Assembly: GCA_016204335.1 (NCBI GenBank)
Contig: JACQKU010000011.1
Coordinates: forward strand, 541-64,540
Source of the DNA: Candidatus Liptonbacteria bacterium
GTDB taxonomy: Bacteria > Patescibacteriota > Minisyncoccia > UBA6257 > 2-01-FULL-56-20
Direction of reading: 5' to 3'
DNA length: 64,000 bases
Part shown: one piece after another, positions 3,185-61,261 of the stretch
How positions within the stretch are numbered: the stretch's first letter is position 1
Layout: every line of letters starts with the position of its first letter
The notes under the pieces: model-generated
Told to the model about the DNA's origin: nothing
Database searches by the model: none
What the model saw: the letters and a program-made list of their open reading frames with translations, nothing else
Made by a program: the position numbers and the translations under genes

Positions 3185-3344
3185 AACTTGCAGTTAAATA
3201 AATATAAAGTTAGTAAGCCGCTTTGAGACGAAGATTTCGAACCTGAAGTCGCTACAGTATAACGAACTCGGGTTCGCGTCAGACAAATCACCTTGCGGGC
3301 GACTTGTCTGACGGCTTGACTTGGGGAGGAGCGGCGGCGGGGCT

Positions 3345-4889: not shown

Positions 4890-6698
4890 CTACCGAATCG
4901 CGTTCCGCAGAATTTTCTTCCGGATGCGGACGCTTTTGGGCGTCACTTCAACGAGTTCGTCCTCGCCGATATATTCGAGCGCCTGCTCCAGAGAAAGCGC
5001 GCGCGGCGGAACAAGGTCGTTGGTCACCGCGTCGGTTTTCGCCCGGAAATTCGTAAGTTGCTTTTGTTTGCAGACATTCACGACAATGTCTTCCGTTTTT
5101 GCGTTTTGTCCCACCACCTGCCCCTCGTAGACTTTTTCCGCCGGACCGATGAACATTATTCCCCTCTCCTGTGTTTTCAAAAGAGCGTACGCGGTGCTGG
5201 CGCCGGCTTCATACGCTACGAGCGAACCGTGGACATTCGCGACCACGGAATCAAACTTCGGAAAATAGCCCGCGAAAAGCGAATTGATGATTCCGGTGCC
5301 ACGGGTTTCGATGATAAATTCCGTCCGGAAACCGATGAGGCCGCGAGTTGAAATGAAAAAGTGGAATGACGCGGCGCCGTTTCCCTGTCCCGAGCCAGTC
5401 GAGGGGTCGACGCTCATATTTTTCAATTCGCCTTTCCGCGCGTTCATTTTCTGGATTACCATTCCGGAATATTCCTCCGGCACTTCAATCCAAACGTCTT
5501 CCGCGGGCTCAAGCGTTTTGCCGTTCTCCTCATGGAAAATAACTTCCGGCCGCGAGACCTGAAGCTCGTATCCTTCGCGCCGCATTTTTTCAATCAAAAT
5601 CGCGAGATGCAATTCACCGCGTCCGCTCACCGTGAATTCATCAGTCGAAATACCTTCTTCCACGCGAAGCGCAACATCGTTGTCGAGCTCTTTAAACAGC
5701 CGCTCGCGGAGATTGCGCGAAGTGCAATATTCCCCTTCCTGTCCCGCGAAAGGAGAATCATTCACCGAAAAAATCATTTTAACGGTCGGTTTTTCTATGG
5801 CTATCGGAGGCAAGGGGTCCGGATGCCCGGCGTCCGCCAGCGTGTCGCCGATGTTCACGTCCGGGATTCCGGCGATTGCAACGATGTCGCCGGCCTGTCC
5901 CGAAGAAACCGCCGCGCGCCCGAGCCCCAAAAAAGTCGTGAGGCCGGTAATTTTATAGTTCTTTGCGGCTCCGCCGTTTGGAATGTGCGCGATTTGCATT
6001 CCGTTTTCCGCCGCGCCGCGCTCGATTCGTCCCACCGCGATTCTTCCCTGATAATTATCGTATTGAATCGAAACCACCATCATTTGAAACGGCGCGCCGC
6101 CCGCCGCTTTCGGGGCGGGAATATGCGCGAGAACCGCGTCAAAAACAGGCATAATATCTTTCATCGAAGCGAGTTCCGGCGAAGTCCCCGCGACTCCCAG
6201 CTTGCCTGATGTGTAAAGAATCGGAAAATTCAATTGTTCGTTTGTCGCGTGGAGCTCCATAAAAAGTTCGATGACTTTTTCGAGCGCGTGATTCACGCGC
6301 GCATTCGGTTTGTCGATTTTATTGATGACCACGACGATTTTGTGTCCGGCATCGAGCGCTTTTTTCAGCACGAAGCGCGTCTGCGGCATCGGCCCTTCTT
6401 GCGCGTCGATGAGGAGAAGCGAACCGTCCGCCATATTGAGAACGCGCTCCACTTCCCCTCCGAAATCCGCGTGTCCGGGCGTATCGATGATATTTATTTT
6501 CGTTTCTTTATAAATCACCGCGGCGTTTTTCGAAAAAATGGTGATTCCGCGCTCCCGTTCAAGTTCGTTCGAATCCATAATAAGCTCGTCGTTCACGAGT
6601 TTTCCGAGCTTGGTCTCGGACTGCTTCAAAAGCGCGTCAACCAGAGTGGATTTCCCATGGTCAACGTGGGCAATAATTGCTATATTTCGAATATTCAT
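4890..6698 (-). CDS. typA: Translational GTPase TypA/BipA
   Basis: 602 aa; [16 protein letters not shown]1 motif, [14 protein letters not shown]; full-length BipA architecture. Confidence 0.9.
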
Positions 6699-6911: not shown

Positions 6912-6941
6912 ATTCTAATTGCGAGTGATGGTTTGTTGATG

Positions 6942-7096
6942 CTTATACTTCAAACCTTATATTTCAAACCTTATATCTTATACTTCAAACCTTATATCTT
7001 ATACTTCAAACCTTATACCTTATACTTCAAACATTATACTTCAAACCTTATATTTCAAACCTTATACTTCAAACCTTATACCTTATACTTCAAACA
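6942..7096. repeat. Tandem repeat array, unit ACTTCAAACCTTATA(T/C)CTTAT with variable 12-21 bp units, about 9 copies
   Basis: Direct reading: cttatacttcaaaccttatatttcaaaccttatatcttatacttcaaacc... contiguous, no spacers. Confidence 0.85.
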
Positions 7097-7111
7097 TTGA
7101 AAATCTTTCTA

Positions 7112-7148
7112 CGCTGTGACGCGTCACAGCGCTATGCCATGGCATAGC
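7112..7148. promoter_or_regulatory. Two abutting perfect palindromes CGCTGTGACGCGTCACAGCG and GCTATGCCATGGCATAGC upstream of typA
   Basis: Self-complementary on inspection; second belongs to the GCTATG...CATAGC motif family seen at 20334, 20526, 21112, 46193. Confidence 0.6.
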
Positions 7149-7610
7149 AGTCGAATTTTCTCGTAAGGGGCGAATCCACGCCTGCGTCCGACTTCGGACG
7201 GGCAGGTGCCTCAGGCACACTATTGCTAGCATATCGGTATTCACAAACAAATGCCGCACTGTTTGGGCGGCGCTTGAGGATAATAGAGGAAAGAGCGAAA
7301 AAAATCAACTTAATTGCGCTCTATCGAAGATGTATTTGCTTGAACTCCTTTCTCTCTGATATTCTCGTACTTCACGCCAAAATAAAACCCAATAAACGGA
7401 AGCGCGACAAAAAGAGCCAGTGCCAGCAATTTCGAATACCACGTCACTTTGTTCCATTCGATTGTCATGGAATTAGTATAACGGATTAAAATTATATTTG
7501 GCAGTGAGCCCTGTTCTCTGCATTTTTATTAAGTTCGACGATCGTCGGGTTTAATAAAATTAAGAGGTGGTGCGATAAGCATATACAATATAGCGCCATC
7601 CAGCGATTTT

Positions 7611-8954
7611 TCAGCGGCTCCGCCATTTGGAGCGGGCGAATCGCCGCCCGCCTGCGTCGTGCCCAAAGCCACTTCGGCCCGCTTCGCCGGAGCGAAAGCG
7701 AGGCGAGCGAGGCGAAGACGGACCGGAAAATCCTTGACGGCCGCCAAAGTGAGGTTGAAATGGACGAAACGGCGGCCGTTGCGGAAGCAAAGAAATCCGC
7801 GCCGGAGGAAGTTCCGGAAGTTTCGAAAGCGGCAATGTGGCCCGAATCAATCGTTCGATTCCGCGCACGTCGCCTCTTTGGTCGGGCGTGGCGAAAGAAA
7901 TCGCGTGACCCACGCCGCCCATTCTGCCAGTGCGGCCGATGCGGTGGACGTAGTCCTCGGCGGTTTGCGGAAGGTCGTAGTTCAACACAAGTTCGATTCC
8001 TCTCACGTCAATGCCGCGCGCGGCGATGTCAGTCGCGATAAGAATCCGGTATCTGCCGTTCCTGAATCCTTCAAGCGCGTCTTTTCGTTGGCCGAGCGAG
8101 CGGTTAGAATGAAGTTCTGCGACTGTGTAGCCGAGAGCGCGAACGCCTTGCGTGATTCTCCGCACCGTATGCTTCGTCCGCAAAAAAACAAGCACCGAAC
8201 CGCGATATTCCGTCAATATTTTTTCAAGAAGCCGCGGCTTGTCGTGTTTCTGAACGAAGAAAAGTTCGTGCGTCACTTTCTCCGCCATTGTGCCGGACGG
8301 CGCGATTTCGACGCGCATCGGAAGTTTCATGTGCGACTGCGCGATGGCAACAATGTCCTGCGGCATTGTCGCGGAAAAAAGCATGGTCTGCCTGTCGCGC
8401 GGAACGTTCTGCAATATACGCTTCAACTGCGGCGCGAACCCCATATCGAGCATCCTGTCCGCTTCGTCAAGAACAAGAACGCCGACTGACGCGAGCGAAA
8501 CGGTTCTCTGTTCGAGATGGTCGATAATTCTTCCCGGCGTGCCGATGATTATTTGCGGGTCCCGTTGGAGCGCGGAAAGCTGGCGGCGGATCGGTTCGCC
8601 GCCGATGAGAATCGCCGTCCGTAGCCGGAGCGGAGCGCCGACTTTCTGGAAAGTTTCATGTACCTGAAACGCCAGTTCGCGCGTCGGAAGAACAACCAGT
8701 CCGCGCCTGCCGGCAAGCGCCGCCTGTATCATCGGAATGCCGAACGCGAGCGTTTTTCCCGTTCCCGTCTGCGCGATGCCGATTAAATCTTTTCCTTCGA
8801 TTGCCGGCGGAATGGAACGCTCCTGAATGGGCGTGGGAACTTTGAAGTTGAGTTTATCGAGTATCCCTAATATGTTCGGCGCGATGCCGAGGTTGTAAAA
8901 TCCGGACGGTTGATTCATAATTGCGACGATAACACAAAAAAAGCGATTAAGCAA
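7611..8954 (-). CDS. DEAD-box ATP-dependent RNA helicase with C-terminal Arg/Gly-rich tail
   Basis: AQTGTGKTLAF (motif I), DEAD, SAT, HRIGRTGR motifs; RGG-rich C-terminus. Confidence 0.9.
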   Translation of the reverse strand: MLNRFFCVIVAIMNQPSGFYNLGIAPNILGILDKLNFKVPTPIQERSIPPAIEGKDLIGIAQTGTGKTLAFGIPMIQAALAGRRGLVVLPTRELAFQVHETFQKVGAPLRLRTAILIGGEPIRRQLSALQRDPQIIIGTPGRIIDHLEQRTVSLASVGVLVLDEADRMLDMGFAPQLKRILQNVPRDRQTMLFSATMPQDIVAIAQSHMKLPMRVEIAPSGTMAEKVTHELFFVQKHDKPRLLEKILTEYRGSVLVFLRTKHTVRRITQGVRALGYTVAELHSNRSLGQRKDALEGFRNGRYRILIATDIAARGIDVRGIELVLNYDLPQTAEDYVHRIGRTGRMGGVGHAISFATPDQRGDVRGIERLIRATLPLSKLPELPPARISLLPQRPPFRPFQPHFGGRQGFSGPSSPRSPRFRSGEAGRSGFGHDAGGRRFARSKWRSR

Positions 8955-10260: not shown

Positions 10261-10276
10261 AATTTTGCTTTACCAA

Positions 10277-10310
10277 AACATTCTAACATTCTGCAGAATG
10301 TTAGAATGTT
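10277..10310. repeat. 34-bp perfect palindrome AACATTCTAACATTCTG|CAGAATGTTAGAATGTT (intergenic copy of the HSNILQNVRM palindromic element)
   Basis: Self-complementary; same core as in-frame copies in purB (26790-26821) and purL (31818-31849); central CTGCAG. Confidence 0.9.
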
Positions 10311-16871: not shown

Positions 16872-18494
16872 ATGAAAAAAATGAAAACAGCGCTCATATC
16901 GGTTTACCATAAAGACGGCATCGCCGAGTTTGCGAAAGAACTTGTCGGGCTCGGGTTTACGATTTACGCGTCAGGCGGAACCGCTAAACATCTCGCGGCG
17001 GCCGGCGTTGAAGTTACTGACGTGGCAATGTTGGTCGGCGGCGGCGCGATTCTCGGCCATCGCGTAGTCACGCTTTCGCGCGAAATCCACGCGGGGCTTC
17101 TGTCGCGGAACGTTCAGGAAGACATCGACGAACTCGCGCGGCTCGGCATCCCCCGCTTTGACCTCGTCTGCGTTGACTTGTATCCGCTCGAAGAAGAAAT
17201 CGCGAAACCGGACGGCACAAGAGAATCGGTAATCGAAAAAACCGACATCGGCGGTCCGACCTTGATTCGTTCCGCGGTAAAAGGCGGACGGCTCGTGATT
17301 TGCGAACCGGATGACCGGCAAAAAGCAATCGACTGGCTCAAGGCCGGCGAACCGGAAATAGCGACAAGGGACATGCGACAAGGAATAAGCGAATCAAAAG
17401 GTTTTATGGAAAAGCAAGCCGCCAAGGGAGAATTTATTGTCGCGAAATATGTTTCTGCTTCTGCCGAATATTTAAGCAATGGAAAATATGCCGACATGTT
17501 AGGACAAGAAATCGCCGCGTGCAAATACGGCGAAAACGCGGCGCAGACACCAGCGGCTCTTTTTTCCTCCGGCGCAAACGACCCTCTCGCGCTCGACAAA
17601 TTCAAACTAATCGAAGGAATCGCGCCGAGCTACAACAACTGGTGCGACATTGACCGGATGCTTCAGACAATCACGCACATCGCCGCCGCGCATTCAAAAA
17701 ATCGAAACTCGATTCCGTTCATCGCAGTCGGCGTAAAACACGGCAACGCGTGCGGCGCCGCCGTCGGCGATTCAAAATCCGAAGCGCTCAAAAAAATGAT
17801 GGCCGGCGACCCGCTCGCCATATTCGGCGGACTGATTATGACGAATTTTCCCGTTAACGAAAGCGTGACGGAACATCTCGCCGGAAAACTGCTCGATGCC
17901 GTCATCGCTCCGGGTTTTTCCCCGGAAGCGATTGCCGCGTTAAAACGGAAAGGCGGCAAATGCCGGCTCATCGCGAATGAAGCTTTGCAATCGCTTGACG
18001 AAAAATGTTTGGATAACGCTGTCCGTTTCCGGTATGTCCGCGGCGGATTCCTGCGCCAGCCGAATTATACGTTCGTTCTTGATTTGAAAAGCGAGGAACT
18101 CAAAAAATATGGGGCAATCTCGCCGGAACTGGAAAATGATTTGCTTCTCGCGTGGGCAATCGGAGCCACGAGCAACAGCAACACCATTGCCATCGTGAAA
18201 AACGGCCAACTTCTCGGCAACGGCGTTGGCCAGCAGGACCGCGTCGGCGCTGCGAAACTAGCGATCGAGCGGGCGCGCCGTTCAGAACACGACATAAAGG
18301 GAGCGGTTGCGTACAGCGATTCGTTCTTTCCTTTTCCCGACGGCCCGAAAATTCTTATCGATGCCGGAGTAAAAGCGATTCTCGCGACAAGCGGCTCAAT
18401 CAGGGACAAAGAAATAATTTCTTTATGCCAAGAACTGAACGTAGCGCTCTATATGATACCTGACGCCGTCGGCCGCGGATTTTTCGGGCATTGA
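16872..18494 (+). CDS. purH: Bifunctional AICAR transformylase / IMP cyclohydrolase
   Basis: 540 aa; N-terminal MGS-like IMPCH domain (ALISVYHKDGI...YASGGTAKHL) and C-terminal AICARFT domain. Confidence 0.9.
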   Translation: MKKMKTALISVYHKDGIAEFAKELVGLGFTIYASGGTAKHLAAAGVEVTDVAMLVGGGAILGHRVVTLSREIHAGLLSRNVQEDIDELARLGIPRFDLVCVDLYPLEEEIAKPDGTRESVIEKTDIGGPTLIRSAVKGGRLVICEPDDRQKAIDWLKAGEPEIATRDMRQGISESKGFMEKQAAKGEFIVAKYVSASAEYLSNGKYADMLGQEIAACKYGENAAQTPAALFSSGANDPLALDKFKLIEGIAPSYNNWCDIDRMLQTITHIAAAHSKNRNSIPFIAVGVKHGNACGAAVGDSKSEALKKMMAGDPLAIFGGLIMTNFPVNESVTEHLAGKLLDAVIAPGFSPEAIAALKRKGGKCRLIANEALQSLDEKCLDNAVRFRYVRGGFLRQPNYTFVLDLKSEELKKYGAISPELENDLLLAWAIGATSNSNTIAIVKNGQLLGNGVGQQDRVGAAKLAIERARRSEHDIKGAVAYSDSFFPFPDGPKILIDAGVKAILATSGSIRDKEIISLCQELNVALYMIPDAVGRGFFGH

Positions 18495-20525: not shown

Positions 20526-20566
20526 CCGCTATGCCATAGCATAGCGGTATGCTATGGCATAGCGGG
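20526..20566. repeat. 41-bp palindromic repeat CCGCTATGCCATAGCATAGCGGTATGCTATGGCATAGCGGG, copy 1 (3' of regulator gene)
   Basis: Identical 41-mer also at 21112-21152; itself an imperfect palindrome built from GCTATG/CATAGC half-sites. Confidence 0.9.
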
Positions 20567-21093: not shown

Positions 21094-21111
21094 ATGATAG
21101 AGTATAGCATA

Positions 21112-21152
21112 CCGCTATGCCATAGCATAGCGGTATGCTATGGCATAGCGGG
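21112..21152. repeat. 41-bp palindromic repeat, copy 2 (immediately 5' of regulator gene start)
   Basis: Exact match to 20526-20566; ends 19 nt upstream of ATG 21093. Confidence 0.9.
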
Positions 21153-21201
21153 TAGCCCTGTATTCGGCAGTTCCGTGTTTGGTAGTTCCACGACTATAAT
21201 T

Positions 21202-24792: not shown

Positions 24793-25986
24793 CTACTCCC
24801 CCGGCGGGAGAAGAACAATATTCTCGGGCCTGAAAATAACCTGCCGCTTTCCTTCTTCGACGACGCCGATATCAATAAGCTCATAACCGGCCTGTTTGCC
24901 GACTGAAAGCGTCCGCCCGACTTCTTCCGGCGGAACAAAAATATAATACCCGATACCCCAGTTAAACGTTTTGAGGCAATCTTGCAGGGAAACGCCGATT
25001 TCGCTCATAAACTGAAAAATCACGGGGACGTTTGTCCACGTATGAATGCGATATGTGAACTGCCGCTTGTCGAACGCCAGTTTGCCGACACCGTCTCCCG
25101 TTCCGGGCAAAAGCGCGCACATTTCAACATTTTCTTTTTGAAGCGCCTCGATTAACGCGACATACGACCGCGTGGGAATGAGCGCTTCTTCGCCGAGCGT
25201 TTTTCCGTTCGGAAGTTTTGTGAGAAATTTGTCAGGAAGTTCGAGCGCGCGTTTTATCAAAAGCGAAATGCCGTTCGCGTGGATGCCCGACGACGTAACG
25301 CCTATGATACGGCATCCCGGCTTCAATTTTTTTCCCGTGATAATTCTTTCTTTCGGCGCGATGATTCCCGTCACGCATCCTGAAAGCGAGGGCGCGCTTT
25401 TGACGGGCGGTTCCGGTTTGAGCAAATACCGGAGAGCAGGCGACTCGCCCGCAGGCAGAGCCATTCCGACTTCTTTGCATATTTTGAAATATCCTTCCGC
25501 GAGGTCGCTGGCCCGTTTTTCGTCCGCGAACCAGGCGCTGTCCCCGACCGCCACTTCGTCCGTGAACACAACCGGCATCGCCCCCTGCGCGATTACGTCG
25601 TTCGTCGCCATAAGCGCCGCGTCAATCGCGATGCCTTCGTAATATGTTCCATTTGCTCCGCGCGAAAATTCACTCTCAGCTCCCAACATACTTCCGCGTT
25701 GTTCCGCGTTCGGTCTGCGTTGTTCTGCGGCCGCGGTAGCGGCATTAGCGTACATCCACTCCGCGATCCAATTTTTGTTGCCAAGCCCTTCCTGCGTACT
25801 GCACCACAAATGAGGAAAATTCCCGCGGTATTCGAACACGCCGCCGTGCGCGTGCAATACTTCCCCGTTAATGTACACATCGCGCCGGTTCGGAAACAAG
25901 AGCGTCCGCTTGCCCATTGCAATCATCTTCTGCTTGAACGGCTCCATCACGCCGTAATCCACTCCCGATTTCGCGTACTCGCTCAT
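24793..25986 (-). CDS. purM: AIR synthase (PurM)-related protein, probable phosphoribosylformylglycinamidine cyclo-ligase, with short in-frame direct-repeat insertion
   Basis: 397 aa PurM-like N- and C-domains (SGVDYG..., GIAIDAALMATNDVIAQGAMPVVFTD); located in pur cluster; divergent from canonical PurM so assignment is moderate. Confidence 0.55.
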   Translation of the reverse strand: MSEYAKSGVDYGVMEPFKQKMIAMGKRTLLFPNRRDVYINGEVLHAHGGVFEYRGNFPHLWCSTQEGLGNKNWIAEWMYANAATAAAEQRRPNAEQRGSMLGAESEFSRGANGTYYEGIAIDAALMATNDVIAQGAMPVVFTDEVAVGDSAWFADEKRASDLAEGYFKICKEVGMALPAGESPALRYLLKPEPPVKSAPSLSGCVTGIIAPKERIITGKKLKPGCRIIGVTSSGIHANGISLLIKRALELPDKFLTKLPNGKTLGEEALIPTRSYVALIEALQKENVEMCALLPGTGDGVGKLAFDKRQFTYRIHTWTNVPVIFQFMSEIGVSLQDCLKTFNWGIGYYIFVPPEEVGRTLSVGKQAGYELIDIGVVEEGKRQVIFRPENIVLLPPGE

Positions 25987-26085: not shown

Positions 26086-27576
26086 CTATAACTCTCCACT
26101 CGCAAGTTTCTCGGCCAATCCGACATAGCTCTCCGGCGTGATTTTAAGGAGTTCTTCTTTTACTTGCGCCGACACATCGAGCCCGTTTATAAACGCCCGC
26201 ATGTCTTCAATCGTTACTGTTTTGCCGCGCGTGAGTACTTTCAGTTTTTCATACGGCATCGCAACGCCCTCGCGCCTTAAAACTGTTTGAATCGCCTCGG
26301 CGATGACTTCCGGATGAAGGTTCAAATCTTCGAGAACTTTTTCTTTGTTCGCTTGGATTCGCCCGAGTCCGTTCAAAAGATTTGCGTAAGCGACAACGGA
26401 ATGCGCGAGCGCAACGCCGAAATTCCGCTCCACCGTCGAATCGGAAAGGTCGCGCTGGAGGCGCGATATAGGCAGTTTCGACGAAAAATAACTAAATAAC
26501 GAATTCGCAATACCTAAATTTCCTTCACTATTTTCGAATTTTATCGGATTTATTTTGTGCGGCATCGTGGATGAGCCGATTTCCCCTTCGTTCGCTTTCT
26601 GCGCAATCCAGCCGTCGCTGATGTAGCGCCAGATATCCTGATTGAAATCAATGAGAATCGTATTTATGCGGCGGAGTAAATCGAAAAGTTCGACGTATGT
26701 GTCGTGCGGTTCGATTTGCGTCGTGAAAAGATTCGGTTCGAGCGTTATGGTTTTTTTTTGATTTTGCGCGGCTCCGCCCGCACCGGACGACATTCTCACA
26801 TTCTGCAGAATGTGAGAATGTTCCCGCAAGCGTGTGACGAAATTTTTCGTGAAATCAAGCCAATCAACTTCAGGATACGCAACAACATTCGCGCTGTAAT
26901 TGCCGGTTGCTCCGTTCAATTTGACGAGAATGCGGAATGAACGCAGTTGCCCGATTTGCCGTTCCAACCGCGCGGCAAAAACCTTGAATTCTTTCCCGAA
27001 TGTCGTAGGAGTCGCCGGCTGGCCGTGCGTCCGCGCGAGCATCGTCAAATTTTTATATTCTTTCGCGAATTCCTCCAATTTCGCGGTTATTTTTTCGAGA
27101 AGCGGCAGAATCACTTTTTCGATTCCGTCGCTCAACATAAGCCCGTAGGCAAGATTATCAATGTCTTCCGAAGTAAGCGCGAAATGAATCCATTCAAGGC
27201 AGTCCTTGAGAGAAGTATTCTCCAACTGGTCGCGCATAAAATATTCTATCGCTTTCACATCGTGGTCCGTGGCTTTGATATTTTTATATCCCGCTCGCTC
27301 GATGTCTTTTATGATTTTTGCATTCTCGAGCGTAAGTTCGGAAAGATTTCGAATCAATGATTTTTCCTCTTCGGAAAAATCGCGGAGGCCTGCCCGCTCA
27401 CCAAAATTTTTGGTGTGAGGGCCGATGTCGGGATGCTCGGACAGCGCGATAAGATATTCCGCTTCGACAAAAAGCCGATAGCGCATCATTCCCGCCTCGC
27501 TGAAAATCTTCGCGAGCGGTTCCGTATATTCCCTATATCGCCCGTCAATCGGGCTTATTGATTCGAGAAAATTCAT
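26086..27576 (-). CDS. purB: Adenylosuccinate lyase carrying an in-frame palindromic-element insertion
   Basis: 496 aa; fumarate-lyase signature GSSTMPHKINPIKFEN; about 24 extra residues (REHSHILQNVRMSSGAGGAAQNQKK) between conserved FVTRL and TTQIEPHD blocks relative to E. coli PurB (from memory). Confidence 0.9.
   Translation of the reverse strand: MNFLESISPIDGRYREYTEPLAKIFSEAGMMRYRLFVEAEYLIALSEHPDIGPHTKNFGERAGLRDFSEEEKSLIRNLSELTLENAKIIKDIERAGYKNIKATDHDVKAIEYFMRDQLENTSLKDCLEWIHFALTSEDIDNLAYGLMLSDGIEKVILPLLEKITAKLEEFAKEYKNLTMLARTHGQPATPTTFGKEFKVFAARLERQIGQLRSFRILVKLNGATGNYSANVVAYPEVDWLDFTKNFVTRLREHSHILQNVRMSSGAGGAAQNQKKTITLEPNLFTTQIEPHDTYVELFDLLRRINTILIDFNQDIWRYISDGWIAQKANEGEIGSSTMPHKINPIKFENSEGNLGIANSLFSYFSSKLPISRLQRDLSDSTVERNFGVALAHSVVAYANLLNGLGRIQANKEKVLEDLNLHPEVIAEAIQTVLRREGVAMPYEKLKVLTRGKTVTIEDMRAFINGLDVSAQVKEELLKITPESYVGLAEKLASGEL
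26790..26821. repeat. 32-bp perfect palindrome ACATTCTCACATTCTG|CAGAATGTGAGAATGT inside purB, in frame (encodes HSHILQNVRM)
   Basis: Self-complementary; differs from copy at 10277 by a compensatory pair (A>C with T>G) that preserves the palindrome. Confidence 0.9.
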
Positions 27577-31386: not shown

Positions 31387-34300
31387 TTAGTAATTCGCAA
31401 ATGTTGATTTGTATGCGGCAAGAATTTCGGGAAGCGGCAGTTTCATATTTTTCTTTTTCCTTCGTATCACGATTTTTTCCTGTTTCACGACCGAGCCGAT
31501 TTTCGCAAAGCTCGTTCCGGTCATTAATTTCTCGAATTTCCGCATATTTTCCGGCGCGACTGTCGCGATAATTCTCCCCTGGCTCTCGGAAAAAAGAGCC
31601 GTAGTGTCATTCGAAAATTTTCCGGGCAGTTTTTTGAGCGATACATCAAACCCGAGTTTTCCTCCCATCGCGGTCTTGCACAACGCGACCGCCAACCCTC
31701 CTTTCGAAACACTGATTGCGGAAGCGACAATCCCTTCGCGGACGCATTTCGAAAACGCCCGATAGAGTTTTCTGTTTTTCGCCGCATCCACGCACGGCAC
31801 CAAACTGTCGCAAAACGACATTCTAACATTCTGCAGAATATTAGAATGTTTTTTGTCGTCTATAAGTGATGCATATTCACTTCCTGCCATCTCGTCGTAC
31901 GTATTACCGAGCGCGTACACCAAATCGCCCGGGCATTTTGCGTCGAGCGATACCGTTTTTTCGGCGTCAGGCACCACGCCGATAGCGGAAATAAGGAGCG
32001 TCGGCGGCACTGAAATTTTTACCGGCTTGCCATCTTCGTCATATCCTTTGAAATCGTTGAACATCGAATCCTTGCCGGAAATGAACGGCGTTTCATAAGC
32101 GACCGCATAGTCGTAACATGCCTGCGCGGCGCGCTTGAGCTGATATAGCCGCTCCGGCTCGTTCGAACTGCACCAGCAAAAATTGTCGAGAAGCGCGATA
32201 TAATCCGGGTCGGCGCCCGCCGCGACAGCGCTCCGAATCGCCGTATCAATCGCGCATGCCGCCATTTTGTACGAATCGATTTCAGAATATGAAGGAGCGG
32301 CGCCGGAAGAAAGAACAATCGCTTTTTTTGAATCCAAAAGCGGCCGCACGGCCGACGCGTCCCCGTTCACTCTGCCTTTGCCCTGGAGCGGCTTCAAAAC
32401 GGAACCTGCCTGCACTTCATGGTCGTATTGCATCGATAAAAATTCGTAACTCGCGATATTCGGGCGCGCAAGCATATTTTTGATTGCGAGCGAAAGGTCG
32501 CGCGATTCTGTTTCAGCCGCTGACATACCAACAAACTCCAGTTTATAAGGATGTGTTTCTTTGGTGGCGAGGTGGCGGCGGGGCCAGCCGTCGTGCAAAA
32601 ACCCCAAATCCAAGTCCATTATTTTCTTTCCGCGATAGTTCACCGCGCACTTTCCCGATGAAGTAAATCTGCCGATAACAGTCGCTTCCACTCCCCGCTT
32701 TTCCAATAGCGAATGAAGCGCCGCCCATTTATTTTTCGGCACGGCGAGCGTCATCCGCTCCTGCGATTCGGAAATCCATATTTGCCACGGCGCGAGTCCC
32801 GGATACTTCAACGGGACTTTATCGAGAGCGACTTCGCATCCGTTCGATTCGCGCGCCATCTCCGCCACCGAACACGAAAGGCCGCCGGCGCCGTTATCCG
32901 TGATGCTGTTATACAATTTTTTATCCCGCGCTTCTTTCACAATCGCGTCGCTCAATTTTTTCTGCGTGATTGGGTCGCCGATTTGCACCGCGGTCGCCGG
33001 GCTTCCCGAATCAATCGCCTCGGAAGAAAATGTCGCTCCGTGAATGCCGTCTTGGCCGACACGGCCTCCGACCATCACGATATAGTCGCCGGGCTTGGCT
33101 TGTTTTTTATGCGACGGTTTTCCGGCCACGGTCCGCGGAATCAAACCGACGGTTCCCGCGAACACGAGCGGTTTTCCGCGATACCTTTTGTCGAACAGCA
33201 TAAATCCCTGCGGCGTCGGAATGCCCGAGCAATTGCCGCCGACATTCACTCCTTGAATTACGCCTTCCATAATGCGCCGCGCCGAGAGAATTTTTTCCTT
33301 CCGTTCCGCGTCGCGGTAAAAAACGCTTTTGTCGCCCGTTCGACCGGGCTCAGGGCGACCCTGAGTGGAATCGAATGGGTCGCGCGGGTCGGCCCCTCGA
33401 CGCGGCTCGGGGCAAGCGAAGCAAAATCCGTAGACATTCGCCACCGGCTTCGCGCCCAAGCCAAACCCGACTGTATCGCGATTCACGCCGAGAATTCCAG
33501 TGATGGCGCCGCCGAACGGGTCAAGCATCGAAGGAGCGTTGTGCGTTTCCACTTTGTGCGTGACGAGATGCTTATCGTCGAACGCAATCGCTCCGGAGTT
33601 GTCGGTGAACACCGAAACGCAGAAATCGCGCCTGCCTTTCTTTTTGCGGATTACATTCGTCGCCGCTTTGATGTAAGAGCGGTAAATTCCGTCTTTTATT
33701 TCATCGATGGGATTCGCGAAAATCGTATGCTTGCAGTGTTCCGACCACGTCTGCGCGAGCGATTCCAGTTCTATGTCGGTCGGCTTCCGCTTTTGACCAC
33801 GGAAATATTCCCTGATTGTTTTCATACTGTCGAGGTCGAGCGCCAACGGGCCGCGGCGGCTTCCGTCCGGATTCGCTATTCCCTCTTTCCCGATGCATGT
33901 TAACTCGCTGTCGTCAACATCAAGGTTTACAGTACCGACCGACACCGACGAAACGAGCGCAACTTTCGGCGCGCTGATTCCCATGCCGCCGTCTTTTTTG
34001 AATTGTTTGAAACTTTTTATCTCCGCGCGCTGAATCAGCGGATTATACAGAGTGTCTGCGACGCGACGCGCGTCCTCTTCCGACAATTTTCCGGAAAGGA
34101 AAAAAACCTGCGAAGAATATGTTCCTTGCCCGCTTTTGAATTTTTTTCCTAAAAAATCCTCGATTGTTTCTTTCGCGGTCGAGCCGATATTGTCGGTGAC
34201 GCCCGGCAAATATCCGACTTCTATCGCCCAGTCGAATTTCGCCGGCGCCTGATTTTGATTTACGGTTGCGCGTTCCACAAGCGGATTCTCCAGAAGCCGC

Positions 34301-34467
34301 GCGACCGCCTGCAACTGCGAACTGGTAAGATTCGCGTCAATGATATACGAATCAACCAAATCCACGGATTTCACATTTCCATTGAAACCGATGCTTTCGA
34401 GATGCCGGAGTTTTACCGCGGCTCGAGTATCGGGAACTTTGTATTTTATATCGATACGGGCGGGCAT
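31387..34467 (-). CDS. purL: PurS-PurS-PurL fusion: FGAM synthase II with tandem N-terminal PurS-like domains and two in-frame repeat-element insertions
   Basis: 1026 aa; two ~85-aa PurS-like repeats then PurL core (ETHNAPSMLDPFGGAITGILGVNRD...); insertions at 31818-31849 and ~33335-33425. Confidence 0.85.
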   Translation of the reverse strand: MPARIDIKYKVPDTRAAVKLRHLESIGFNGNVKSVDLVDSYIIDANLTSSQLQAVARLLENPLVERATVNQNQAPAKFDWAIEVGYLPGVTDNIGSTAKETIEDFLGKKFKSGQGTYSSQVFFLSGKLSEEDARRVADTLYNPLIQRAEIKSFKQFKKDGGMGISAPKVALVSSVSVGTVNLDVDDSELTCIGKEGIANPDGSRRGPLALDLDSMKTIREYFRGQKRKPTDIELESLAQTWSEHCKHTIFANPIDEIKDGIYRSYIKAATNVIRKKKGRRDFCVSVFTDNSGAIAFDDKHLVTHKVETHNAPSMLDPFGGAITGILGVNRDTVGFGLGAKPVANVYGFCFACPEPRRGADPRDPFDSTQGRPEPGRTGDKSVFYRDAERKEKILSARRIMEGVIQGVNVGGNCSGIPTPQGFMLFDKRYRGKPLVFAGTVGLIPRTVAGKPSHKKQAKPGDYIVMVGGRVGQDGIHGATFSSEAIDSGSPATAVQIGDPITQKKLSDAIVKEARDKKLYNSITDNGAGGLSCSVAEMARESNGCEVALDKVPLKYPGLAPWQIWISESQERMTLAVPKNKWAALHSLLEKRGVEATVIGRFTSSGKCAVNYRGKKIMDLDLGFLHDGWPRRHLATKETHPYKLEFVGMSAAETESRDLSLAIKNMLARPNIASYEFLSMQYDHEVQAGSVLKPLQGKGRVNGDASAVRPLLDSKKAIVLSSGAAPSYSEIDSYKMAACAIDTAIRSAVAAGADPDYIALLDNFCWCSSNEPERLYQLKRAAQACYDYAVAYETPFISGKDSMFNDFKGYDEDGKPVKISVPPTLLISAIGVVPDAEKTVSLDAKCPGDLVYALGNTYDEMAGSEYASLIDDKKHSNILQNVRMSFCDSLVPCVDAAKNRKLYRAFSKCVREGIVASAISVSKGGLAVALCKTAMGGKLGFDVSLKKLPGKFSNDTTALFSESQGRIIATVAPENMRKFEKLMTGTSFAKIGSVVKQEKIVIRRKKKNMKLPLPEILAAYKSTFANY
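31818..31849. repeat. 32-bp palindrome ACATTCTAACATTCTG|CAGAATATTAGAATGT inside purL, in frame (encodes HSNILQNVRM), one mismatch
   Basis: Core 31819-31848 identical to intergenic copy except G>A at 31840. Confidence 0.9.
33335..33425. repeat. GC-rich palindromic element inserted in frame in purL (encodes CPEPRRGADPRDPFDSTQGRPEPGRTGDK)
   Basis: About 75% GC stretch with stems GTCGCCC...GGGCGAC and CTCAGGG-cga-CCCTGAG in a gene otherwise about 50% GC; region between PurL conserved MGAKP and GGNC blocks is about 35 aa longer than in B. subtilis/T. maritima PurL (from memory). Confidence 0.6.
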
Positions 34468-58936: not shown

Positions 58937-59234
58937 TTCGCGTTCGTAAATTTCTCACAGATTCAATTGAGAAGATTATATCATATTAAAAAAGAGGTTG
59001 GTTGTGGATAACTCCGCTTCGGTTTTCGTTTTGCCAGGCGCGGCCTCTGCCTCCCTGCAGGCAGGCAGAGCTCCGGCGGCGAGGCGGCCTGTATCCCTGC
59101 CTGCCGGCAGGCAGGTCGGCGAGCAAATCGCCTGCGGCGATATCAAGCTTGCTCCCCTCCGATAACGCCCGGCAAAACGAAAACCTGCGCTATTGGCGGA
59201 CAAACTTCTGAGCTTACAAGATAATTATATATTG

Positions 59235-61108: not shown

Positions 61109-61261
61109 GCACGGTTGATTTTACATCAACGAATAACGAATCGCAAACGAATGAACGAATTCGTAAATTCTCCGCCAGAGGCGCCTGCCCGTCCGAAGTC
61201 GGACGCGGGCGGGGGTCCGCCTTCGGAGAAGAAATAAATTCACTATTCGCCGATTAATCGC

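Follow-up and report, generated by a model that had tools for sequence, protein, structure and literature searches.

The 64-kb stretch of DNA analysed here, referred to as the window, comes from a bacterium of the candidate phyla radiation (CPR), and its purL gene carries the GC-rich palindromic insert that is described below. The gene encodes a long CPR-type formylglycinamidine ribonucleotide (FGAM) synthetase subunit with an N-terminal extension, which is the host of both insertions found. The Pfam domains FGAR-AT_linker, AIRS and AIRS_C were detected in the 1026-aa open reading frame (ORF), and its product matches solved PurL structures in a comparison with the PDB. A protein identical to it has been annotated in a metagenome-assembled genome (MAG) of Candidatus Liptonbacteria. 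Within this ORF, the minus strand at 33335-33425 encodes ...FCFACPEPRRGADPRDPFDSTQGRPEPGRTGDKSV..., in a segment that reads ...YGFCF-ACPEPRRG-ADPR-DPFDSTQGRPEPGRTG-DKSVFYRD...; the predicted peptide stretch across the insert region is GADPRDPFDSTQGRPEPGR. The features of the locus are the following:

31387-34467, minus strand: purL coding sequence, 1026 aa (ORF and translation, Pfam and PDB matches).
33394-33417, minus strand: insertion 1, 24 nt, encoding ACPEPRRG; a unit hairpin GCCCC / TCGACGCGGCTC / GGGGC, antisense to purL, absent from the closest relative (P0002) and from 111 of 114 homologs.
33382-33393, minus strand: native codons GCC GAC CCG CGC (ADPR) between the insertions; ADPR is conserved across the family, and P0002 has GCT GAC CCG CGC GAC AAG.
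33331-33378 (equivalently 33336-33383), no strand assigned: insertion 2, net 48 nt, encoding (D)PFDSTQGRPEPGRTG; an inverted repeat, placed by alignment to the empty site of the relative (locus L001).
33330-33361, plus strand: unit hairpin with stem GTCGCCC/GGGCGAC and loop GTTCGACCGGGCTCA; the stem is recovered by DNA folding.
33353-33384, minus strand: unit hairpin with stem GCGACCC/GGGTCGC and loop ATTCGATTCCACTCA.
33379-33383, minus strand: GCGAC (coding strand), native copy of a 5-nt direct repeat whose other copy lies at 33331-33335; the reverse complement is in the element centre GGGTCGCCC.
33349-33365, no strand assigned: perfect 7-bp palindrome CTCAGGG-cga-CCCTGAG in the centre of insertion 2; matched nowhere else in the window (chance expectation 0.05).

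The insert was compared with the 120 closest PurL homologs, from CPR/Patescibacteria and about 990 aa long, in 114 of which the interval from YGFCF to GVNxGGN could be measured. This interval is 31 aa long in 111 of the 114 homologs and 55 aa long in the window PurL, the 72 extra nt (24 aa) being the excess specific to the window lineage. Compared with solved small PurLs the excess ranges from 38 aa (T. thermophilus, 3viu) to about 46 aa (T. maritima), because the whole CPR PurL family already has the 31-aa loop. A previous reading of the window, made from the sequence only, had proposed an excess of about 35 aa; the segment is indeed longer than that of the small enzymes, but its lineage-specific part amounts to 24 aa.

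The closest relative (PurL P0002, 77% identity by BLASTP and 81% over aligned columns) lacks both insertions. Its empty site reads TTT GCT GAC CCG CGC GAC AAG, and the window allele reads TTC GCT [TGC CCC GAG CCG CGT CGA GGG GCC] GAC CCG CGC GAC [CCA TTC GAT TCC ACT CAG GGT CGC CCT GAG CCC GGT CGA ACG GGC GAC] AAA, with the inserted codons in brackets and the boundary of insertion 1 ambiguous by 1-2 nt. What had been taken for one element of about 90 bp proved to be two insertions, of 24 nt and 48 nt, with 12 native nucleotides (ADPR) between them; both lengths are multiples of three and both insertions are stop-free. The outgroups P0003-P0010 also lack the insertions, which points to a gain in the window lineage and not to a loss in P0002. 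As judged from these alignments, the insertions are shown to have arisen after the split from the closest sampled relative.

The composition of the segment is unusual for its surroundings. GC content is 70.3% at 33335-33425 and 73.6% over the inserted 33331-33417, compared with 52.5% for purL and 49.4% for the window, and only 0.56% of 91-nt windows are equally GC-rich as 33335-33425; the earlier figure of about 75% was thus slightly too high, the stretch being GC-rich as claimed. Both stems that had been named, GTCGCCC...GGGCGAC and CTCAGGG-cga-CCCTGAG, are present as perfect 7-bp inverted repeats, together with GCGACCC/GGGTCGC. In folding comparisons with shuffles, the 59-nt core gave z-scores of -2.4 and -1.8. 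Of the single units, the minus-strand hairpin at 33353-33384 gave a z-score of -3.35, with none of 200 shuffles as stable, and the other unit -1.2; for the 24-nt insertion 1, stability relative to shuffles was not significant.

Insertion 2 consists of two overlapping inverted unit hairpins in the layout X-E-revcomp(X)-revcomp(E)-X, where revcomp denotes the reverse complement. The same unit was found as a dispersed repeat in other phyla. It is a hairpin of about 32 nt; its stem, of 6-8 bp and ending in CC/GG, is variable, and its loop, (T)TCGAC-N2-3-GCTC(A), is conserved. The stem is followed by a T:A pair, a 2x2 pyrimidine internal loop, a G:C pair, a bulged A and, closing a loop of 2-3 nt, a C:G pair. 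A full element is formed by two units on opposite strands with a common central stem strand, so that its flanks are direct repeats of each other and the layout given above results. Insertion 1 is a single unit of a family variant that has C:G in place of the T:A pair. The family consensus is nnnnnnCCCTTCGACnnnGCTCAGGGTnGnCC.

When one genome per GTDB species was scanned with the pattern TTCGA-N5-CTCAG-N5-6-CCCTGAG-N4-5-TCGAA, at least 120 loci were detected in many phyla, a lower bound, with fewer than one expected by chance. The loci listed come from Chloroflexota, Acidobacteriota, Planctomycetota, Omnitrophota, Patescibacteria, Cyanobacteria, Desulfobacterota, Binatia and others. The 124 instances among the matches listed comprise 43 different centres, with which both flanks covary: the mean length of the longest perfect flank-centre stem is 5.1 vs. 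2.8 nt on the 5' side and 5.9 vs. 3.7 nt on the 3' side. When 79 distinct units were aligned, 80.8% of the cells paired, compared with 27-43% with slid partners, and both-side changes occurred in 138 cells, compared with 50±6 in shuffles (0 of 500 shuffles reached 138). The inner pair is CG in 52 units, UA in 11 and GC in 6. Flanking direct repeats occur family-wide, with a mean longest shared repeat of 3.8 nt vs. 2.6 nt in controls. To judge from these alignments, the conserved loop and the covarying stems across phyla imply a conserved recognition factor.

Other structures were considered for the repeat. A single long hairpin formed by the arms TTCGA..CTCAG and CTGAG..TCGAA was rejected in favour of the unit hairpin, since its variable positions are without significant covariation (2.38 vs. 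2.21±0.12). Readings of the conserved loop as tRNA-like (T-loop/D-loop), as a hammerhead or as a K-turn were discarded by inspection, the spacing and core nucleotides being a misfit.

The elements are depleted from long ORFs: 36% of those among the matches listed fall within 600 nt or more of stop-free sequence, compared with 80% of random positions. Copies outside CPR are, in the listed matches, mostly intergenic and resemble repetitive extragenic palindromes (REPs), and an in-frame copy (...ALRLRSERPLSAVEG...) was found within a 1069-aa cyanobacterial resistance-nodulation-division (RND) transporter. Multi-copy genomes keep a constant centre, such as AGCTTGCC in 25 copies in one Chloroflexales bin among the matches listed, which fits amplification from a master copy. 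Chloroflexales N1_Bin_185_1 and Vicinamibacterales MFD00962 are examples of genomes in which the element is abundant. The pattern had no match in 2.9 million viral contigs, and there is thus no sign of phage carriage in that set. Six-frame translations of the repeat (PFDKLRAN, LRQAQDER, PSTSSGRT, VRPELVEG and SLSKGE) presumably occur as 'hypothetical proteins' in Chloroflexi and other MAGs, a lead followed in the genome scan above and in the model search below. No paper describing the motif was found in searches by peptides, DNA strings, and keywords for CPR and palindromic repeats.

Membership of the PurL insert in this family was assessed with a covariance model, here called R1, which was built from the 79 units of other phyla, with no CPR sequence, and run on the window and two related loci. 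The matches were as follows:

Window, 33353-33384, minus strand: 32.1 bits, E 1.6e-7.
Window, 33330-33361, plus strand: 28.4 bits, E 2.6e-6.
Window, 33387-33418, plus strand (insertion 1): 18.0 bits, E 0.006.
Locus L001, purH, two units, plus and minus strands: 38.8 and 27.6 bits, E 1e-9 and 4.6e-6.
Locus L001, purM, plus strand: 25.2 bits, E 2.8e-5.
Locus L001, purC, plus strand: 17.6 bits, E 0.0077.

The thermodynamic evidence being weak, the case beyond chance rests on this comparative evidence, with R1 E-values of 1.6e-7, 2.6e-6 and 0.006 at the purL locus. The PurL insert shows the unit hairpin with the conserved loop as well as the dimer layout, GCGACCC ... GGGTCGCCC ... GGGCGAC. No other R1 match was found in the 64-kb window at E<=10, and BLAST and pattern searches of the window for further copies of the exact insert returned only the insert itself. 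The intergenic hairpins at 3277-3315, 7181-7206, 58976-59211 and 61184-61209, which the sequence-only reading had likened to it, have no R1 match at E<=10 and are unrelated.

In 23 kb of sequence from the related genome there are three R1 loci. Its purH contains a 48-nt insert (LTHSTTLRVNPEPVEG; DNA CTCATTCGACTACGCTCAGAGTCAACCCTGAGCCTGTCGAAGGG) that is missing from the purH of the window and is about 75% identical to PurL insertion 2, the first half being read in a different frame. The C-terminal end of its PurM is PFDKTQGRPE, and its purC has a degenerate 48-nt copy. The same element DNA is thus read in different frames in purL, purH, purM and purC, indicating conservation at the DNA level and not at the peptide level.

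A further copy was detected in the bipA/typA gene of the window:

5383-5406, minus strand: probable family copy in bipA/typA, 24 nt, CCCCTCGACTGGCTCGGGACAGGG, in frame with peptide PSTGSGQG; resembles insertion 1.

The bipA loop is 16 aa long in the window and 8 aa in 91 of 92 CPR homologs, with an empty site in a 90%-identical relative (L125) and a gap relative to the E. coli-type BipA 8ewh. The motif CCCGAG-N-CGAGGG of insertion 1 recurs in bipA, giving two matches in the window vs. 0.06 expected. The match to R1 is weak (6.9 bits), and the bipA insertion is probably a family copy, so called because its sequence is similar to the units of insertion 1 and of the PurL protein P0033. The six in-gene copies examined (PurL insertions 1 and 2, bipA, P0033 insertion 1, and the purH and purC of L001) are all 24 or 48 nt long and stop-free and span three different frames or orientations, the pattern that selection on translated sequence would leave.

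Insertion 1 was also found in a second lineage. The purL of P0033 carries a 24-nt unit at the identical codon boundary, so that an ACPExxRG insert is present in both. Common ancestry of the two insertions was rejected, since P0033 is not the sister of the window protein (P0001) and groups with P0026 and P0030, both without the insert. Near-identical copies, TGCCCCGAG-N6-CGAGGGGCCGAYCC, were found at seven unrelated loci in Joint Genome Institute (JGI) metagenomes, with R1 scores of 20-22 bits and on contigs that also bear canonical units. Since this 24-nt unit is also present outside purL, the recurrence of ACPExxRG is accounted for at the DNA level. The seven copies share GCC...GCCGAYCC ends, and the native flanks of insertion 1 (GCY|GACCC) coincide with these conserved ends; this correspondence would account for insertion at one and the same codon boundary in two unrelated lineages. 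In the same loop of P0033, around 8190-8235 of locus L003, lies a second palindromic insert, GC-rich and 14 aa long (TQPRRPKGSGLRLQ; AGCCCCGAC...GTCGGGGCT); it was not matched in the R1 search and may belong to another repeat family.

An AlphaFold2 model of the window PurL, built with 98 homologs, had a mean predicted local distance difference test (pLDDT) score of 85 and a predicted template modelling (pTM) score of 0.89. The only segments below pLDDT 50 are residues 354-378, 642-647 and 876-880, exactly the three lineage-specific inserts. The GC-rich insert is modelled without secondary structure, between the strand 340-350 and the helix 396-414. The insertions would thus give the enzyme a 24-residue Pro/Gly/Arg-rich disordered surface-loop extension, and, judged from frame and model, the insert appears to be tolerated by the enzyme without contributing a function of its own.

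With the empty site in the closest relative, the match to the repeat family and the predicted disordered loop, the GC-rich palindromic in-frame insertion in a tolerant part of PurL, as first proposed from sequence, is confirmed as a real feature. It is likely, and we hold this with good confidence, that the stretch represents two independent in-frame insertions of a small, non-autonomous, selfish hairpin repeat, similar to REPs and to Rickettsia palindromic elements (RPEs), in a surface loop of PurL.

The layout suggests how such insertions could occur. Insertion 2 is flanked by GCGAC/GCGAC and the purH copy of the relative by TTGA/TTGA, the element centre being complementary to the repeat in both. 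The left GCGAC of insertion 2, which lies in the 5' stem half of the minus-strand hairpin 33353-33384, is native purL sequence, being present in the empty site. This left copy would be the target, to which the element centre is complementary, and insertion may have been guided by short homology or base pairing between the element stem and the target. Two routes can be envisaged: a hairpin-recognising single-strand transposase acting in trans, with a logic like that of IS200/IS605 insertion sequences or of REP-associated tyrosine transposases (RAYTs), or template switching at microhomology. [quoted passage not shown] The flanking repeat is intrinsic to the family layout and so may not be a duplication generated by transposition.

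A bolder proposal is rather doubtful. According to it, the insert would belong to a hitherto undescribed class of miniature mobile hairpins that spans phyla and is built as X-E-revcomp(X)-revcomp(E)-X. The variable stem would serve as a guide pairing with the target, or else the layout would allow the element to be copied into any site with 4-8 nt in common with its ends, and no linked transposase would be needed. Such hairpins would be active at present in the streamlined genomes of CPR and would time and again reshape surface loops of essential enzymes (purL, purH, purC, purM and bipA), with the same codon boundary hit independently in different lineages.

Several observations weigh against the reading as selfish insertions. 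No transposase-like Pfam match or RAYT was found among the about 50 ORFs of the window, and among 120 matches listed no gene is recurrently linked to the elements, only generic families being found there; ORFs between paired copies in the Chloroflexales bin are spurious or unrelated. Strong R1 matches in the 64-kb window are confined to the purL locus. The centre is constant within multi-copy genomes, and the match between centre and target could reflect microhomology with a donor copy and not guide-like targeting. Translation of the insert is suggested by its frame and length only. Folding of the whole 111-nt region gave z-scores of -0.61 (RNA) and -0.95 (DNA) relative to shuffles, and the window allele comes from a single assembled contig.

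The last two points bear on rival explanations. If the insert were an ordinary lineage-specific loop expansion, in which slippage or duplication produced a disordered GC-rich peptide rich in Pro, Gly, Arg and Ala, with incidental palindromes and no mobile element, an overall fold energy no better than that of shuffles would be in keeping with it. The EPR/DPR similarity (GAGCCGCGT vs. GACCCGCGC) hints at local duplication in insertion 1, the same PurL loop has a tandem duplication in P0088, and sporadic short inserts occur in other CPR PurL and BipA proteins. However, R1, trained on other phyla, matches the insert at E-values from 1e-7 to 6e-3, the same DNA is found in other reading frames in purH, purM and purC of the relative, and near-identical 24-nt units are present at unrelated loci in other organisms. 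Loop expansion is largely refuted by the R1 matches and these 24-nt units, and we regard it as extremely unlikely. An assembly or binning artefact, a repeat wrongly joined into the purL of a MAG, would agree with the exact protein being known from one contig, but it is barely credible: the inserts are in frame, stop-free and 24 and 48 nt long, with perfectly collinear purL on both sides, and analogous inserts occur in independent assemblies, P0033 being on seven contigs and genes of the P0002 genome on five.

The remaining alternatives assign a function to the insert. The hairpins could be a cis-acting signal selected within purL, acting in mRNA stability, RNase processing or translation pausing or as a binding site for a host protein, with coding as a side effect. 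The loop conserved across phyla and the covarying stems, which imply recognition by a trans-acting factor, would agree with this, as would the mostly intergenic position of copies in other phyla, similar to REPs with proposed roles in transcript stability (PMC3733652). Yet presence or absence varies between close relatives at every locus compared, and orientation relative to transcription is inconsistent, insertion 1 being antisense and the bipA copy sense. No Rfam family was found, either at the gathering score in the window or as a relevant match at E<=1 in eight element-bearing loci, and nothing connects the element with purL regulation, so that a cis-acting signal appears unlikely. An adaptive PurL loop, contacting PurQ or PurS or forming a regulatory site and kept for protein function, would fit the position of the insert in the catalytic half, adjoining conserved blocks, and the ACPExxRG insert in two lineages. 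It is very unlikely, given that the loop is predicted to be disordered (pLDDT <50) and is missing in 111 of 114 homologs, the 77%-identical one among them, that the same 24-nt unit in non-purL contexts explains the recurrence at the DNA level, and that the family is read in several frames.

The preferred reading, insertion of a selfish hairpin repeat, was compared with known systems. RPEs were reportedly described by Ogata et al. in 2000 (Science 290:347) and 2002 (Genome Res 12:808). According to a later account, RPEs are about 100-150 bp long, restricted to Rickettsia and conserved as a peptide (PMC10969869). In terms of that description, the elements resemble RPEs in being palindromic repeats placed in frame in unrelated housekeeping genes of a small-genome bacterium with the ORF kept, in occupying permissive protein sites, in varying in presence between relatives, and in the coexistence of several families. 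The PurL insert shows the in-frame palindrome with the ORF kept and, in the structural model, a predicted permissive region (354-378, pLDDT <50). Relative to the same description, the inserts differ in their lengths of 24 and 48 nt, their occurrence in many phyla and their conservation at the DNA level in at least three frames or orientations, and by described size and host they fall outside the RPE families.

GTAG/CGTC REPs have conserved stems of 8-9 bp, loops of 4-5 nt and an unpaired terminal tag (Di Nocera et al. 2013, PMC3733652). A minority of them lie in known genes, where single or dimeric copies add about 10-30 aa (O. terrae, R. conorii and Thauera; PMC3733652). The present elements resemble them as short GC-rich hairpins, mostly intergenic and often in head-to-head dimers, and CGTC REPs too have no identified dedicated transposase (PMC3733652). 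In contrast, the present family has a variable stem, a conserved structured loop of 14-15 nt with an inner C:G pair, and overlapping dimers that share a stem strand; no unpaired GTAG/CGTC tag was found beside the stems in 33325-33420 or in the consensus nnnnnnCCCTTCGACnnnGCTCAGGGTnGnCC. The insert thus behaves like RPEs and intragenic REPs, but belongs to neither.

REP doublets forming hairpins (REPINs) are about 100 bp long with a spacer, lineage-specific and tied to a flanked single-copy RAYT gene (Bertels & Rainey 2011, PMC3116915). They share with the present elements an inverted hairpin doublet as the mobile unit, non-autonomy and dispersal in the chromosome, whereas here there is no spacer, no RAYT was found among the window ORFs and the loop motif is common to many phyla. 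As an analogy of mechanism, with no claim of membership, IS200/IS605 elements (TnpA Y1 HUH) recognise hairpins in single strands and choose the target by pairing with internal sequence (PMC6006769), and both flanking repeats here are likewise complementary to the element centre. The analogy is drawn from the X-E-revcomp(X)-revcomp(E)-X layout only, no transposase, long element or strand bias being shown in the present case. An intein or self-splicing intron was rejected, the inserts being 8 and 16 codons long, with no Pfam domain and no Rfam intron match.

Until now, in-frame 'selfish' palindromes have been seen as an oddity of Rickettsia, apart from a few REP cases, and the window extends the phenomenon to a CPR bacterium. 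At least three palindrome families are present in purine-pathway and translation genes of the window or its relative. These elements yield spurious ORFs and odd peptides (PFDxxQGRPE, PSTxSGQ) in MAG annotations, inflate protein lengths and mark permissive loops in essential enzymes. Of broader interest are the hairpin family shared across phyla and how densely in-frame palindromes occur in these CPR genomes.

Other inserts were observed in the same genes. The AT-rich 30-nt palindrome at 31815-31850 in purL, with copies in purB and in an intergenic region, bears out the suggestion that purL carries a structured insertion of another class. It belongs to a family of about 32 nt (ACATTCTCACATTCTGCAGAATGTGAGAATGT) that is also found at 26787-26822 (purB) and 10275-10310 (intergenic), and is read in frame in purL and purB as HS(N/H)ILQNVRMS, PurL residues 876-880 having a pLDDT <50. 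A third in-frame palindrome family, CTCACACCAAAAATTTTGGTGAG, encoding PHTKNFGE(R/G)AG, lies at 27388-27420 in purB of the window and at 10319-10354 of L001 in purL of the relative, thus in different host genes of the two related genomes. Lineage-specific in-frame inserts that are missing from L001 were found in purM (25669-25749, 27 aa, ANAATAAAEQRRPNAEQRGSMLGAESE, with an internal direct repeat GAACAACGC) and in purH (17358-17396, 13 aa, IATRDMRQGISES, with a direct repeat GCGACAAGG). Across 18 orthologue pairs of the window and its approximately 80-90% identical relative, 22 indels of at least 3 aa were counted, with no insertion in common.

At two further sites, six CPR BipA homologs (P0148, P0152, P0159, P0156, P0157 and P0162) carry inserts that are lineage-specific and 14-50 aa long, such as MVRQAHHPGNN...DLVPYHPERSRR, and in-frame repeat insertion therefore seems to be widespread in CPR housekeeping genes.

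Rfam covered the whole 64-kb window and gave no family at the gathering score, neither a tRNA nor a riboswitch nor any other known RNA. For a small genome, the density of short interspersed repeats in the window is unusually high. The intergenic hairpins at 7181-7206 and 61184-61209 are mutual reverse-complement copies (GTCCGACTTCGGAC within CCTGC...GCAGG) and represent a separate repeat or terminator-like hairpin, distinct from the PurL family. The GC-rich intergenic region 58976-59211 is full of CCTGCCGGCAGGCAGG-type palindromes with no Rfam match, a type also inserted in frame in the PurL proteins P0003, P0008 and P0010 (LPAGRQG) and present in a BipA homolog (LPAGQAG). At 6921-7123 lies a tandem array (CTTATACTTCAAAC...) with a periodicity of 7/14/21 nt, and it adjoins a dispersed palindromic repeat, CCGCTATGCCATAGCATAGCGG, present at three loci (7111-7169, 20526-20566 and 21094-21170). 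Finally, a gene for a 23S rRNA-intervening-sequence protein (PF05635, a bAvd-like four-helix bundle) was found at 810-1172 on the plus strand, between amidohydrolase and lyase genes; in the relative (L125, 13884-16146) the latter two are directly adjacent, and the gene of the window looks inserted.

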